DNA from: Candidatus Limnocylindria bacterium | GTDB lineage: Bacteria > Chloroflexota > Limnocylindria > QHBO01 | Direction of reading: 5' to 3' | Assembly: GCA_036004845.1 (NCBI GenBank) | Contig: DASYRA010000001.1 | Location: 282-64,281, forward strand | DNA: 64,000 bases | Shown here: piece by piece, positions 3,438 to 10,817 of the stretch | How the letters are laid out: each line of letters begins with the position of its first letter | Position numbering within the stretch: the stretch's first letter is position 1 | Notes under the pieces: model-generated | Told to the model about the DNA's origin: nothing | The model's input: the letters and a program-made list of their open reading frames with translations, nothing else | Database searches by the model: none | Program-made: the position numbers and the translations under genes

Positions 3438-7778
<4,341 letters not shown>

Positions 7779-7784
7779 TCCGGG

Positions 7785-7812
7785 GGGCGCCTGGCGAGCT
7801 CGTCGGGCGCCC
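7785..7812 (+). terminator. GC hairpin just after rpoC stop (GGGCGCC-N14-GGCGCCC), no U-tract
   Basis: Arms 7785-7791 and 7806-7812 are complementary. The 3' arm coincides with the left target-site duplication of the island. Confidence 0.3.
7805..7812. repeat. Left copy of putative 8-bp target-site duplication GGGCGCCC
   Basis: Identical 8-mer at 10773-10780, immediately outside the two terminal inverted repeats. The 8-mer is itself palindromic. Confidence 0.6.
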
Positions 7813-7834
7813 GGTAGTGTCTCAGTTTGAGCGT
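7813..7834. repeat. Left terminal inverted repeat GGTAGTGTCTCAGTTTGAGCGT
   Basis: Exact reverse complement of 10751-10772. Confidence 0.9.
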
Positions 7835-7877
7835 CGGAATGCTTGACCCCCTCCCGCTCGGGCCTCATGCTTGAGGG

Positions 7878-8114
7878 GTGAAGAAACGCAAGATGCCACG
7901 CGATCCGAACCAGCTCGCCAAGATGATCGTAGACATGACGCTGCATGAGGACGAGCCGGAATCTCCCGAGCGGGTTAAGGACCCGGCGTCGGTGGAGCTG
8001 GGTCGTCAGGGCGGTCTCATTGGTGGACCCAGGCGGGCAGCGAAGCTCAGTCCTGAACGCCGGAGCGAGATCGCGCGGAAGGCAGCGGCTGCTCGATGGG
8101 GCAAGCAGGCGTAA
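7878..8114 (+). CDS. Small basic hypothetical protein (78 aa; cargo)
   Basis: ORF inside the island. Start is GTG 7878 or ATG 7893. C-terminal motif GGLIGGPRRAAKLSPERRSEIARKAAAARW. Family not recognised. Confidence 0.5.
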   Translation: MKKRKMPRDPNQLAKMIVDMTLHEDEPESPERVKDPASVELGRQGGLIGGPRRAAKLSPERRSEIARKAAAARWGKQA

Positions 8115-8144
8115 TCTTACTGGCCGCAAGTTTACGGATTCCGC

Positions 8145-8173
8145 TTGACACTCTCTACGCCCGGCCGTAGACT
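8145..8173 (+). promoter_or_regulatory. Sigma70-like promoter TTGACA-N17-TAGACT upstream of the 243-aa ORF
   Basis: -35 TTGACA at 8145-8150 and -10 TAGACT at 8168-8173. Followed by hairpin ACTCCTG...CAGGAGT, then AGGAG (8192-8196) 7 nt before ATG 8204. Confidence 0.4.
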
Positions 8174-8203
8174 CCTGTTCCCTTCGCTAGCAGGAGTTCG
8201 GCC

Positions 8204-8935
8204 ATGGCACCCACATATCGCTATCCGACCTACAACCTCGAATCCGCACTCGATGTAGCCCGACGCATCAACGATCGTGGAGCGGATGCCGTTCTATCAG
8301 CAGACGAACTTGCCGCTGTCCTCGGGTACAGCTCCAAGAACAATGGGGCCTTTCTCAGTCGCCTCGCAGCCGCTCGGCTTTTCGGTTTCCTGGAGGGACA
8401 GGCTGGCGCACTAACTGCGAGCGACCGCGCCGTAACGATCTTGCAGCCCGACTATCCCGAGAATGCAGATCGCGCGCGTCTGGCGGCTTTCAAGGGGGTA
8501 CCGCTGTTCGGCGCGTTCCTTGACGCATTTGGCGGGCGAGAGCTTTCTGATGATGCCGGGATGAAGAATGCGCTGATAACGCGATTCAAGATCCCTGCCA
8601 AAGAGGCTGGACCCATCCTGGCCCGCCTCATGGAATCTGCGGAACAGGCCGGTCTTTTCCGCGTCGCCGGAAACCGCACGCGGATGATTGAACCGACGAT
8701 CCGAGGCGGCACTCCTGCGCACACTAACGGGACAGGAGCCGAGCCCCCAAGCTCCCCACCGAAGGAAGAGCCGAAGCAGCTCGTGCAGGGCCTCCCCAAG
8801 ACAATCACGGGCGCGCTGGAATTGCTACCCGCTGGGCGAGAGTGGCAAGAGGATGAATACGCGGAGTGGCTGGCCTTCTTCGACATGGCCTGCCGTGTCT
8901 ACTACAAGCTCCCCCGAACAAAGGAGGCTGGATAG
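8204..8935 (+). CDS. Hypothetical protein, 243 aa, possible N-terminal winged-helix (cargo)
   Basis: ATG with AGGAG Shine-Dalgarno and balanced composition. N-terminus LSADELAAVLGYSSKNNGAFLSRLAAARLFGFLEG looks wHTH-like. Pro/Glu/Lys-rich linker, then an acidic/aromatic C-terminus. No family recognised. Confidence 0.7.
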   Translation: MAPTYRYPTYNLESALDVARRINDRGADAVLSADELAAVLGYSSKNNGAFLSRLAAARLFGFLEGQAGALTASDRAVTILQPDYPENADRARLAAFKGVPLFGAFLDAFGGRELSDDAGMKNALITRFKIPAKEAGPILARLMESAEQAGLFRVAGNRTRMIEPTIRGGTPAHTNGTGAEPPSSPPKEEPKQLVQGLPKTITGALELLPAGREWQEDEYAEWLAFFDMACRVYYKLPRTKEAG

Positions 8936-8937
8936 CG

Positions 8938-8985
8938 GGAACGGGCGGCCACGTTCGCTAGCAGGCTAACAAGGCCGCCCGTTCC
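8938..8985 (+). terminator. 13-bp-stem hairpin after the 243-aa ORF (GGAACGGGCGGCC ... GGCCGCCCGTTCC)
   Basis: Perfectly complementary arms at 8938-8950 and 8973-8985 with a 22-nt loop. No U-tract, so a terminator role is uncertain. Confidence 0.3.
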
Positions 8986-8992
8986 ACCGGAT

Positions 8993-9064
8993 GGGCCGCG
9001 CAGGTTCGCCACCAGAGGACTCTAGACCCGATGGTGACGGGTTCAACTCCCGTGCGGTCCACCA
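8993..9064 (+). ncRNA. tRNA-like / tmRNA-TLD-like element with alanine identity features (non-canonical, 72 nt)
   Basis: Acceptor stem GGGCCGC/GCGGTCC with G3-U70 wobble. Discriminator A and encoded CCA. T arm ACGGG-TTCAACT-CCCGT. No canonical D arm or anticodon stem could be folded. Confidence 0.35.
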
Positions 9065-9182
9065 CGCTCAAGCATCTTACAGCGGAGCACAAGGCTGAGT
9101 CTTGGCCCAATGGTCCCACCACCCGCGATCTCCTCAAGCATCGCGACAGACTGCTGTCACACTCCTCAAGCATTCTGTTCAC

Positions 9183-10019
9183 ATGAACAGGCTGAGCAGG
9201 ACCGAACGAGCGAAGATCATCCGTCTGCTGGTCGAAGGCAACAGCCTCCGTTCCGCGACCCGGATCACTGGCCGCTCCATCAACACGATCTCGAAGCTGC
9301 TGGTGAATCTCGGAGCGGCATGCGAGAAGTACCAGGACGAGCACCTGCGCGACCTGAGCAGTTCACGGATCGAGTGTGACGAGATATGGGCGTTCTGCCG
9401 AGCCAAGGCCCGCAACGTGCCCGACGAGCATCGGGGCGAGCCGGGCTGGGGTGACATCTGGACGTGGGTTGCCCACGATCCCGATACGAAGCTCGTCTCG
9501 ACTTGGCTGGTCGGGGACCGGGATGCGGAGTCAGCCAACGCATTCCTCGCAGACCTCGCCTCCCGGCTCCGCAACCGGGTACAGCTCACCACAGACGGCT
9601 ACCGCCCATACCTCGATGCAGTCGAGCGGGCATTCGGTCGGGACGTGGACTTCGCGCAGTTGGTGAAGTTCTACGGTACCGATCCGGCTGAGGACCGCAA
9701 GTTCAGCCCGCCGGTCGTCCTCTCCGAGGAGGTCCGCATCATTCAGGGCCAGCCGGACCCAGAGCGGATCAGCACGTCGGGCGTCGAGCGCCAGAACCTT
9801 ACGATGCGGATGGGGATGCGCCGCTTCACCCGTCTCACCAACGGCTTCTCAAAGAAGGCCGAGAATCACGCGGCAGCGATCAGCCTGCACTACATGTACG
9901 TCAACTTCGCGCGGCCCCACAAGAGCCTCGCCAACCCGTACCCCCGGACCCCAGCAATGGCGGCAGGGATCAGCGACCATATCTGGACCTGCGAGGAGAT
10001 CGCGAACCTGATCGACTGA
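9183..10019 (+). CDS. IS1-family transposase (single ORF, 278 aa)
   Basis: N-terminal HTH (RTERAKIIRLLVEGNSLRSATRITGRSINTISKLL). DDE-type blocks CDEIWAF, TTDGYRPY, VERQNLTMRMGMRRFTRLTNGFSKK parallel IS1 InsB (TDGWPLY, ERHNLNLRQ..SFSKS). ATG 9183 preferred over the track's TTG 9102. Confidence 0.9.
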   Translation: MNRLSRTERAKIIRLLVEGNSLRSATRITGRSINTISKLLVNLGAACEKYQDEHLRDLSSSRIECDEIWAFCRAKARNVPDEHRGEPGWGDIWTWVAHDPDTKLVSTWLVGDRDAESANAFLADLASRLRNRVQLTTDGYRPYLDAVERAFGRDVDFAQLVKFYGTDPAEDRKFSPPVVLSEEVRIIQGQPDPERISTSGVERQNLTMRMGMRRFTRLTNGFSKKAENHAAAISLHYMYVNFARPHKSLANPYPRTPAMAAGISDHIWTCEEIANLID

Positions 10020-10067
10020 CGTACAATGCTTGAGAGCGAGGCAACTATCGTCAAAGGAGGCAGGCTC

Positions 10068-10238
10068 GTGACTCAGGTTTCCCCTTGGCACTCCAAGCGC
10101 GTGACCGATCGCAACGTCTACCACGACAACAACAAGTGCACCGAAGGCAACAACATCGAGTCCTGGAATCGCGAGTCAGGTACCGACGGGCGTCCTAAGT
10201 GTGAGCATTGCGCTGACCTCGACGCGAAGGGCCAGTAG
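10068..10238 (+). CDS. Small Cys-containing (putative zinc-ribbon) protein, 56 aa (cargo)
   Basis: AAGGAGG (10054-10060) 7 nt before GTG 10068. Motifs VYHDNNKCTEGNNIE and GRPKCEHC. The track ORF starts earlier, at 10026. Confidence 0.55.
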   Translation: MTQVSPWHSKRVTDRNVYHDNNKCTEGNNIESWNRESGTDGRPKCEHCADLDAKGQ

Positions 10239-10530
10239 GAACGAACACCAGATCCCACCACGGCCCTGTCAACTCGCCGTCGTCCATTCGCCACACGCGG
10301 CGTAGTTGGTAAACGGGTAGGCCGTTCTGCAACGCTACGCCGAGGGCGACAATACCCTCGGCGTAGCTGCCTCTGAATCGCACGGTCGGCTCGGAGAACG
10401 CGTGGCCCTCGCCACCCTCGCACGATTCATACGTCGCAACTCCTGCCTTTTGGAGTATCACCACGGCTCGGGCTATCCCGGCATCTAGCTCCACATTGGC
10501 ACCATAGGAACAGGAGACTGAGTCATGCAT
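10195..10530 (-). CDS. Hypothetical protein, 111 aa (cargo)
   Basis: Protein-like composition with mixed A/T-ending codons (MHDSVSCSYGANVELDAGIARAVVILQKAGVATYESCEGGEGHAF...). Its 3' end overlaps the convergent ORF 10068-10238 by 44 nt. No clear SD. Confidence 0.45.
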   Translation of the reverse strand: MHDSVSCSYGANVELDAGIARAVVILQKAGVATYESCEGGEGHAFSEPTVRFRGSYAEGIVALGVALQNGLPVYQLRRVWRMDDGELTGPWWDLVFVPTGPSRRGQRNAHT

Positions 10531-10719
10531 GAATGGAAGTTCCCAGGCGTTTCAGGATTCCCCCCCGCTGATCCCGGCCCCATCATGGCGGAGATAGTGG
10601 TGGTGGCCGTTTGCAAGAAGTGCGGCACGATCCGCACCCAAAGCGTTCTAGGCACGAGCGGGGTCGGCCAAATCGATCTCAGCGGCAACTGCGACCTGCC
10701 AGCGCCCCTCGTCGGCTAA
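10525..10719 (+). CDS. Possible small ORF (64 aa, contains CKKCG); may be spurious
   Basis: The only open frame between the 111-aa ORF and the right IR. Its start overlaps the divergent ATG of 10195-10530. No SD seen. Confidence 0.2.
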   Translation: MHEWKFPGVSGFPPADPGPIMAEIVVVAVCKKCGTIRTQSVLGTSGVGQIDLSGNCDLPAPLVG

Positions 10720-10750
10720 GGCCGCTATCAATACCTGAAGCCCGTAATCC

Positions 10751-10772
10751 ACGCTCAAACTGAGACACTACC
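10751..10772. repeat. Right terminal inverted repeat ACGCTCAAACTGAGACACTACC
   Basis: Exact reverse complement of 7813-7834. Confidence 0.9.
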
Positions 10773-10780
10773 GGGCGCCC
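10773..10780. repeat. Right copy of putative 8-bp target-site duplication GGGCGCCC
   Basis: Identical to 7805-7812. Confidence 0.6.
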
Positions 10781-10787
10781 CGTTCGA

Positions 10788-10817
10788 TTGACACTCGTGC
10801 GGCGCGAACCGTATACT
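10788..10817 (+). promoter_or_regulatory. str-operon promoter candidate TTGACA-N18-TATACT
   Basis: Consensus -35 at 10788-10793 and -10 TATACT at 10812-10817. Lies 7 nt after the island's right TSD and ~150 nt upstream of rpsL. Confidence 0.5.

Follow-up and report, generated by a model that had tools for sequence, protein, structure and literature searches.

IS1-type insertion sequences and the rpoC-rpsL element

Classical IS1 is a 768-bp insertion sequence (IS) in which two open reading frames (ORFs), insA and insB', are linked by a programmed -1 frameshift; single-ORF members are also recognised in the IS1 family, and IS1 is reported to prefer AT-rich target DNA. Larger units have reportedly been set out by Siguier et al. 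in 2009 and 2015 as "transporter" IS, which are said to be catalogued in ISfinder within the IS1 and IS1595 families and to include a large IS1 subgroup of up to about 4.6 kb. The element described here lies at positions 7813-10772 of a 64,000-nucleotide (nt) stretch (hereafter the window) of contig DASYRA010000001.1 from a Candidatus Limnocylindria bacterium (assembly GCA_036004845.1, contig positions 282 to 64,281, forward strand), and is very probably an intact insertion of such a passenger-carrying IS1-family IS. An original prediction, made from the sequence alone, had placed a cargo-carrying IS1-family element between rpoC and the rpsL promoter; that interpretation is essentially right and its central claims hold.

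Compared with IS1A, the element has ends of the same GGTnnTG form (GGTGATG in IS1A, GGTAGTG here) and a duplication of 8 bp as against 8-9 bp in IS1, and its transposase combines a helix-turn-helix (HTH) region homologous to InsA with a D-D-E region homologous to InsB, including ERxNL...FSK. In contrast to IS1, the unit measures 2,960 bp rather than 768 bp, contains a separate gene for a protein of 78 amino acids (aa) as well as cargo, starts its transposase internally, more than 1.3 kb inside the element, rather than reading it from the left inverted repeat, and belongs to a group with a target preference for T(T/A)NAC at +7. The likeness to the transporter IS is that of a DDE IS of a few kilobases whose inverted repeats enclose genes unrelated to transposition. 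The feature by which a transporter IS is recognised is present here, as unrelated genes that vary from copy to copy share the terminal inverted repeats (TIRs) and the duplication with the transposase. The element is thus an ordinary kind of object, and what is notable are two by-products of the analysis, namely an RNA lacking a D-arm that is shared with phage contigs and an insertion signature at a fixed offset of 7 bp. We know of no description, for the IS1 or IS1595 transporter IS, of a 78-aa partner gene, of tRNA-like cargo or of a promoter-proximal target signature.

Terminal inverted repeats and target-site duplication

A repeat search of the window identifies a 30-nt inverted repeat with 100% complementarity (7805-7834 and 10751-10780), each copy of which consists of the 22-nt TIR GGTAGTGTCTCAGTTTGAGCGT and, on its outer side, the palindromic 8-mer GGGCGCCC. 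The left TIR (IRL; 7813-7834, forward strand) and the right TIR (IRR; 10751-10772, reverse strand) both begin with GGTAGTG, fitting the pattern GGnnnTG, and a scan allowing up to 3 mismatches finds no further site for GGTAGTGTCTCAGTTTGAGCGT in the window (0 expected from 100 shuffles). The search thereby confirms the perfect 22-nt TIRs flanked by GGGCGCCC that had been noted in the original prediction. The 8-mer itself is not rare, occurring 7 times in the window against 8.1 expected, and because it is common in this GC-rich DNA, its reading as a target-site duplication (7805-7812 on the left, 10773-10780 on the right) rests on its position and on related elements.

The first approximately 18 nt of the IRL are kept throughout the clade of related elements as GGTAGTG[GT][GC]TCAGTTTGA. 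Two related elements (loci are designated L and a number) are a 2,290-bp element in L004 (90% transposase identity) and a 3,983-bp element in L005 (81%), which have the same ends at unrelated sites with duplications CACCGAGG and CAGAGGCG, respectively. A scan of representative genomes provided 80 further loci with transposases of 56-80% identity from at least six phyla. Both GGTAGTG[GT][GC]TCAGTTTGA ends are present in 61 of 81 distinct loci, and 50 of these 61 two-ended elements are bordered by a perfect 8-bp direct repeat; the 61 bounded elements range from 1,350 to 9,160 bp in size (median close to 3.3 kb). The original prediction was to be disproved if the TIR never co-occurred with this transposase elsewhere; such co-occurrence is found at no fewer than 61 other loci, and relatives carry the same TIR beside unrelated 8-bp direct repeats, in agreement with the proposed target duplication. 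The homologs of the transposase are spread over Chloroflexota, Actinomycetota, Dormibacterota, Acidobacteriota and other groups.

The same census bears on the notion that the 30-bp inverted repeat is one palindromic feature without target duplication, such as the border of a site-specific island or an immobile fossil. As GGGCGCCC is palindromic and not rare in this genome, a single copy of the element reads equally well as a 30-bp inverted repeat; in the relatives, however, the repeat always starts at GGTAGTG, the outer 8 bp vary and are mostly non-palindromic direct repeats, and in the element itself the ORF list and Pfam give no integrase or recombinase, the DDE transposase being the only mobility gene. 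This notion is hardly credible, and on the evidence of the relatives GGGCGCCC is taken as the target duplication of an IS insertion.

The junctions are identical in separate assemblies from several samples (L001, L002, L003 and L089), hence the element is not an assembly artefact. The assemblies of some samples stop at or just inside the IS ends (L091:1-177, L092 and L002), and the element also forms a 3.2-kb contig of its own; such breaks could reflect repeat copies or filled/empty polymorphism within the population.

Transposase and family assignment

The single ORF at 9183-10019 (forward strand) encodes a DDE transposase of 278 aa, which is assigned to the IS1 family on the basis of Pfam, NCBIfam, BLASTP and an aligned catalytic triad. 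It contains an N-terminal HTH, and D65 (in CDEIW), D137 (in TTDGY) and E202 (in VERQNL) align with the corresponding residues of InsB, the motif pairs of the local alignment being CDEIW/MDEQW, TTDGY/MTDGW and VERQNL..FSK/IERHNL..FSK. In BLASTP comparisons with IS1A of E. coli K-12, the HTH of InsA (residues 55-88) matches residues 11-44 with 41% identity (E = 4e-5), and InsB residues 122-164 match residues 198-241 with 36% identity (E = 9e-6). PF03400 (DDE_Tnp_IS1) scores 32.2 bits, above its gathering score of 24.1, and the NCBIfam IS1 model NF033558 is the best-scoring transposase model of that collection with 60.8 bits. The DEIW, TDG and ERqNL motifs are kept in at least 95% of 78 aligned clade members. 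More than 8,000 database proteins match the transposase at E <= 1e-3; the best 120 are 72-93% identical, come from Limnocylindrales, Acidimicrobiales and others, and, where named, are all called IS1 family transposase.

Several observations count against a simple IS1 assignment. The PF03400 match spans only 39 residues of the transposase, and the NF033558 score lies below the cut-off of 100 bits, so that the protein, with this model as its best yet sub-threshold match, represents a divergent IS1 branch. The two-ORF architecture with a programmed -1 frameshift that characterises classical IS1 is replaced here by one uninterrupted 278-aa ORF. The zinc finger of InsA is missing as well, since the alignment begins at InsA residue 55, past the Cys-rich N-terminus, and the protein starts straight with the HTH, with no Cys among its first 45 residues. 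GGnnnTG ends combined with 8-bp duplications are, moreover, a recognised feature not only of IS1 but also of IS6/IS26 (PMC6807381).

The latter point raises the question of whether the element belongs to IS6/IS26 or to another DDE family instead. IS6/IS26 elements resemble it in their GGnnnTG ends and 8-bp duplications (PMC6807381) and in a single-ORF transposase with an N-terminal HTH, and weak matches to IS6 models are obtained (PF13610, DDE_Tnp_IS240, 22.2 bits, E = 1.7e-4; NCBIfam IS6 model NF033587, 29.4 bits). These matches, however, stay below the respective cut-offs of 27 and 125 bits and are weaker than those to the IS1 models, whereas BLASTP gives significant matches to E. coli InsA and InsB in both halves of the protein, the transposase shares its glutamate region, ERxNLxxR...FSK, with InsB, and the homologs with source names are called IS1 family rather than IS6. 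Membership of IS6/IS26 or another DDE family is accordingly very improbable. The transposase is therefore a fused single-ORF relative of InsAB' without zinc finger and without frameshift, in line with what had been read from its IS1-type blocks and the GGTAGTG ends.

Target site and insertion preference

The DNA next to the right duplication contains the rpsL promoter TTGACA-18-TATACT (10788-10817, forward strand; target DNA outside the element), which was located by a promoter scan, meets 11 of the 12 consensus positions and is conserved in L093, a relative without the element. Its -35 hexamer starts exactly 7 bp past the right duplication, the two together spanning 10773-10793. On the other side, the left copy of GGGCGCCC doubles as the 3' arm of the hairpin following rpoC (7786-7792 / 7806-7812). 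Removing the element and one 8-mer places the rpoC hairpin beside TTGACA-18-TATACT, as had been proposed for the ancestral site.

The spacing recurs among 52 independent insertions with perfect duplications (L004-L088). The pattern T-N-N-A-C is found at offsets 7-11 in 20/52 flanks on the IRR side and in 9/52 on the IRL side, as compared with 0-3 at any other offset, and exact TTGAC begins at offset 7 in 10 IRR-side and 4 IRL-side flanks as compared with 0-1 elsewhere. Among 18 further ends with TTGAC at offset 7, 13 (including that of L192) are followed by a TAnnnT hexamer at a distance of 16-18 nt. A second target class has a -10 hexamer, TA(C/T)ACT, at the same offset, in front of a leaderless IscA/ErpA-like gene; the insertions at IscA/ErpA promoters are independent events, as their duplications differ and both orientations occur. 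Sites of this IscA/ErpA type were seen in L056, L067, L071, L072, L076 and L085, from Solirubrobacterales, with the flank motif GCTACACTTTGTGAAGTGAC; here the distance between the IS and the -10 hexamer (TACACT) is 5 nt.

A sequence-based target preference that is shared by the clade and tends to spare genes and promoter cores thus accounts best for the insertion upstream of rpsL. While the insertion between rpoC and the rpsL promoter stands as first described, the conserved intergenic region that had been emphasised matters less than the TTGAC-like motif 7 bp away. As the duplication here is a hairpin arm, targeting of hairpins or terminators was also checked as a general rule and rejected: the folds of the reconstructed empty sites barely beat shuffled sequences (mean z = -0.47), with 6/52 below -2.

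Backbone protein and cargo genes

Six ORFs of the window were compared by tblastn with 88 loci. The 78-aa ORF (7878-8114, forward strand) has a match in 76/88 loci, lies inside 56/61 bounded elements and is nearly always the first gene after the IRL; owing to this distribution it belongs to the backbone, not to the cargo. Its conserved core begins with MPRDPNQ at the ATG at 7894, and the alignment gives the motifs MPRDPNQxAK...KDPAxVELGRxGGxIGGxxRAxKLSPExRSEIARKAAxARW. The protein has 1,106 homologs, some of which are named "histone H1" for their basic C-terminus, and no Pfam match; its structural model contains three predicted helices (predicted local distance difference test score, pLDDT, 81; predicted template modelling score, pTM, 0.34). 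The C-terminal motif also heads P63C-domain cargo proteins of relatives. The 78-aa protein may be a small accessory or regulatory factor that binds nucleic acids, its gene taking the place that insA has in IS1.

Two further positions of the element carry genes that change between relatives. On the left, the 243-aa ORF (8204-8935, forward strand) matches 8/88 loci and belongs to a family present in 5 clade elements; its 50 homologs are all hypothetical proteins, and it has no match in Pfam, NCBIfam, PHROG or PADLOC and no sequence match in the PDB below E 0.4. The model of this protein is confident (pLDDT 88), and Foldseek finds a weak likeness to winged-helix DNA-binding domains and to nothing else (best E 0.058). 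On the right, the 70-aa ORF (10026-10238, forward strand), which matches 4/88 loci, has its sole homolog outside copies of this insertion in L025, and its likelier start is the GTG at 10069 after AAAGGAGG. The convergent 111-aa ORF (10195-10530, reverse strand) matches 7/88 loci and recurs in four other clade elements (L016, L025, L038 and L061) with 49-63% identity. The convergent pair of 70-aa and 111-aa ORFs (10026-10530), which looks like a small conserved cassette, was also noted at L025:7284-7725, downstream of a transposase 67% identical to that of the window. The original prediction had treated all DNA beyond the transposase as cargo; this is borne out for the 243-aa, 70-aa and 111-aa ORFs and for the RNA described below, and does not apply to the 78-aa ORF, which is backbone (76/88 loci).

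The cargo of the relatives is diverse, with 107 clusters formed by the 146 ORFs that are 90 aa or longer. The most recurrent family is a fusion of a DNA methylase with an Mrr-like endonuclease (8 elements), followed by a ClpP-like SDH protease (6 elements), XRE-HTH proteins with Peptidase_M78 (5), P63C (4), DUF5343 (4), GmrSD (2) and Fic (2); an AbiEii-like ATPase and a STAND NTPase also recur. Cargo of the defence or conflict type was observed in L005, L010, L017, L032, L037, L042, L056, L064, L069, L072, L081, L082 and L085. The transposase of L192, 93% identical to that of the window, is found in another context with different cargo, a HARE-HTH protein.

tRNA-like RNA

A 72-nt tRNA-like RNA gene (8993-9064, forward strand) precedes the transposase and was delimited by folding, covariation and comparison with relatives. 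It has a 7-bp acceptor stem (GGGCCGC/GCGGTCC) with G3.U70, a 10-nt linker GCAGGTTCGC where the D-arm would be, no variable loop, a long irregular stem capped by the anticodon-like loop CUCUAGA, and a 3' part made up of the T-arm ACGGG-UUCAACU-CCCGU, A73 and an encoded CCA. The region 8930-9075 folds strongly (z = -4.9), and the RNA is conserved in L005 with compensatory changes.

Further copies lie in related IS (L005:5826-5898, L023:4511-4581, L026:1622-1692, L086:5582-5652 and L192:1010-1080), so that six IS lineages including the window carry it; among the loci searched, a covariance model finds the RNA in just those IS lineages. Phage-like contigs without the transposase carry it as well (L189:6371-6443, reverse strand, and L186:45-117), and shorter relatives occur in other viral contigs. 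In an alignment of 22 sequences, which was fitted to the covariance model and so leans towards the structure, 96% of cells pair as compared with 56% after shuffling and at most 50% with slid partners, and both sides change in 15/17 pairs. Seven distinct copies have readable acceptor stems (window, L005, L023, L026, L086, L189 and L192); among these, positions 4-7 covary, while G2-C71, G3.U70 and A73 are invariant and G4-C69 is kept in 4/7. The bacterial alanine identity set comprises A73, G2-C71, G3.U70, G4-C69 and G20 (PMC9976931), three of the four acceptor-end elements of which are present in all seven copies. The anticodon-like loop has the form CU-NNN-RA in most copies (L023 and L192 differ), NNN being CUA in the window and L026, CAC in L005 and GUA in L086.

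Known classes were considered and rejected. A canonical tRNA does not fit, as ARAGORN makes no call, a 171-nt search gives no Rfam tRNA match at E <= 10 and the D-arm is absent; nor does a canonical transfer-messenger RNA (tmRNA), as the gene is 72 nt long with a single internal hairpin, is not called as tmRNA by ARAGORN and contains no mRNA-like domain, tag frame or pseudoknots. Rfam as a whole makes no call, and its tmRNA model meets the RNA only at the T-arm (model positions 347-363), with 11 bits against a gathering score of 47. The RNA nevertheless resembles the tRNA-like domain of tmRNA in its 7-bp acceptor stem with G3.U70, A73 and CCA, in the T-arm GGGUUCAACUCCC and in a D-loop-like GGUUCG stretch without a D-stem, a similar stretch (GGAUUCG/GGUUUCG) being carried by tmRNAs; it differs in being just 72 nt long and in the long stem, which ends in an anticodon-like 7-nt loop CU-NNN-RA. 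On the sequence evidence, 8993-9064 is a real structured RNA gene, closest to the tRNA-like domain of tmRNA minus the messenger part, and the strong fold and the covariation lend support to the tRNA-like module that had been recognised upstream of the transposase. A role of the anticodon-like loop as a guide was dismissed, as inspection by eye showed no consistent complementarity to the duplication or the transposase start. Literature searches returned nothing relevant on an IS1-type element with tRNA-like cargo, on this clade or on its RNA.

Between the 243-aa ORF and the RNA lies a strong GC-rich hairpin with a core stem of about 13 bp (8938-8985, forward strand; repeat search and folding), and similar hairpins are found in front of the tRNA or tRNA-like genes of L004, L005, L019, L026 and L072. 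Because of this arrangement here and in several relatives, the hairpin suggests that the RNA is co-transcribed with the preceding gene and released by tRNA-processing enzymes.

In other members of the clade, the slot about 100-190 nt before the transposase was seen to hold tRNA genes called by ARAGORN (Asn GTT, Pro AGG, Ser ACT/GCT, Glu TTC, Leu TAG and CTA), at L004:5818-5891, L019:5789-5876, L033, L038, L043, L051, L064, L072, L077 and L079; some of these are odd, such as that of L004 with the T-loop TTGGATT. L010-L015 and L025 have another conserved block instead of a tRNA-like gene, about 60-260 nt upstream of the transposase, which comprises several GC-rich hairpins and an apparent short ORF with a Shine-Dalgarno sequence, followed by CCTAAGCATGAATCTTCAGATTCGA.

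Transposase control region and internal repeats

The region upstream of the transposase (9067-9173, forward strand) was delimited by its sequence, by repeat counts and by relatives, and contains three copies of CTCAAGCAT (at 9067, 9133 and 9165) and the palindrome GACAGACTGCTGTC. A -10-like hexamer, CATTCT, stands 6 nt before the transposase ATG, which has no Shine-Dalgarno sequence. The 20 nt before the ATG are conserved over 80 loci with the consensus cgcTcaagcatAATggtCAGTATGAAC; 48/80 of these loci have the hexamer CATwnT 5-8 nt upstream of the ATG and 25/80 have TTGAC at -35 distance, and no Shine-Dalgarno sequence is present. Because the conserved -10-like hexamer is so close to the ATG and a Shine-Dalgarno sequence is missing, the transposase mRNA is probably leaderless.

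The 9-mer ATGCTTGAG has five exact copies in the window, all within the element, against 0.24 expected, and the 9-mer ATGCTTGA(C/G), which reads CTCAAGCAT on the other strand, has five to six copies, likewise confined to the element, near the IRL and before and after the transposase. Two of the ATGCTTGA(C/G) copies (7839-7847 and 7867-7875, forward strand) are paired inside the IRL, upstream of the 78-aa ORF, an arrangement also found in L004 and L192, and other sites surround the transposase gene (9067-9075, 9133-9141, 9165-9173 and 10026-10034). In many relatives, CTCAAGCAT overlaps the conserved -10 region of the transposase. The IRL-proximal 9-mers are putative promoter or operator sites, and CTCAAGCAT is a possible operator.

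The start of the transposase gene (9160-9200), which reads ATGGTCAGTATGAAC in most members, is similar to the inner TIR GTGGGTCAGTTTGAA; by inspection of 76 loci, the variable TIR position 8 tends to carry the same base as the position 8 nt ahead of the ATG. The paired variants are the TIR GTGGGTCAGTTTGAA with the start ATGGTCAGTATGAAC and the TIR GTGTCTCAG with the start ATGT(T/G)CAG. As the transposase start resembles the inner TIR and tends to vary with it, the protein that binds the ends may also bind its own start, by analogy with IS1 autoregulation. A composite element with a fossil internal IRL was considered and rejected, as there is no GGTAGTG-type end between the RNA and the transposase, where only the palindromic core TCA-N3-TGA recurs.

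Composition, copy number and mobility

GC content is about 0.69-0.72 outside the element and 0.60-0.64 inside, which makes it the lowest-GC stretch of 2,960 nt in the window, and its ORFs have a GC content at third codon positions (GC3) of 0.54-0.84, as compared with 0.92-0.96 for rpoC, rpsL, rpsG and fusA. The foreign appearance that had been suspected from codon endings is thus matched by both measures.

For the view that the insertion is recent and still mobile, the evidence on copies, the empty site and transposase expression is adverse. No second copy is found in the window or in contigs with an identical transposase. The predicted empty locus reads ...CTCGTCGGGCGCCCCGTTCGATTGACA..., and the exact empty junction TCGTCGGGCGCCCCGTTCGATTG has 0 matches in the metagenome contig collection; look-ups by exact protein gave no record for RpsL as called and only filled or broken contigs for RpsG. 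The closest relatives by RpoC C-terminus (86% and 82% identical) have intergenic sequences that are unrelated or too diverged to compare, L093 having an extra small ORF in this region and L094 a different downstream gene. The transposase of this copy also lacks a recognisable -35, and with CATTCT and no -35, its expression may be low. As no empty site was found, the insertion is only presumed to be recent and still mobile.

The element might instead be decayed or domesticated, fixed and immobile in spite of its intact ends, with its genes, including the tRNA-like RNA, serving the host. It is single-copy as far as visible, all contigs with identical RpsG (five samples) either carry the insertion or break at it, and the transposase is preceded by the weak -10-like CATTCT alone. 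Against this, neither the TIRs nor the duplication contain a mismatch, the 278-aa ORF is uninterrupted, with every clade-invariant residue in place, GC3 far from the host values argues against long residence, and a 93%-identical transposase occurs in a different context with different cargo. Decay or domestication is thus unlikely, and an intact insertion of a transporter IS is preferred.

Proposed mechanism and significance

In the proposed mechanism, the transposase would be read from its internal, probably leaderless start and would recognise both GGTAGTG...TCAGTTTGA ends, which would be joined to target DNA cut with an 8-bp stagger, giving the GGGCGCCC duplication; we infer this chemistry by analogy with IS1 and with DDE enzymes generally. 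Target choice in the clade depends partly on sequence, with a T(T/A)NAC motif, in many cases a genuine -35 TTGACA, lying 7 bp outside the duplication, and this geometry placed the present copy just upstream of the rpsL promoter with rpoC, its hairpin and the promoter core undamaged. The element combines a conserved backbone, made up of the IRL, the basic protein of 78 aa and the transposase along with the control region upstream of it, with two variable cargo slots, of which the left holds the 243-aa winged-helix-like protein and the 72-nt tRNA/tmRNA-like RNA, and the right the convergent 70-aa and 111-aa ORFs plus one doubtful ORF.

This account explains why some 3 kb of foreign DNA interrupt the otherwise conserved rpoC-rpsL region: a transposon insertion is tolerated there, both neighbouring units having stayed intact. 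It also opens onto a very large IS1-type clade, with more than 8,000 close transposase homologs, that moves small defence-type cassettes. A broader proposal, that the clade docks 7 bp upstream of TTGACA-type -35 hexamers and that one sub-lineage carries a class of D-arm-less RNA active in translation or in tRNA-directed conflict, is tentative, and we consider it rather less probable than its negation. If it is true, docking in either orientation at TTGACA or T(T/A)NAC would be a "safe-harbour at promoters" strategy, which is not described for the IS1 family. Confirmation of the offset-7 preference for TTGAC would provide a testable rule by which a simple DDE transposon spares its host from damage, and possibly a route to promoter-proximal insertion tools.

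The RNA would, under the same proposal, be an undescribed class of about 72 nt that combines a tmRNA-like domain (A73, G2-C71, G3.U70, often CCA) with an anticodon-like loop, present in one sub-lineage and in unrelated phage contigs and having CUA, an amber anticodon, in the loop of the window and L026 copies. Such an RNA could be charged with alanine and could have a role in translation or act as a decoy or spare substrate for tRNA-directed toxins; alternatively, it could compete for SmpB or for ribosome rescue. If the RNA is expressed and charged with alanine, it would represent a new family of tRNA mimics on mobile elements.

Minor features of the element and its flank

A 64-aa ORF (10525-10719, forward strand) taken from the ORF list is doubtful, as its tblastn matches (3/88 loci) include no homolog beyond copies of this same insertion. 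A promoter scan finds the promoter-like sequence TTGACA-17-TAGACT (8145-8173, forward strand) before the 243-aa ORF. Upstream of the element, rpoC (3438-7778) encodes a 1,446-aa RpoC with a long Ala/Glu/Lys-rich, coiled-coil-like insertion at about residues 140-340, which is presumably a lineage-specific insertion of the beta-prime subunit.

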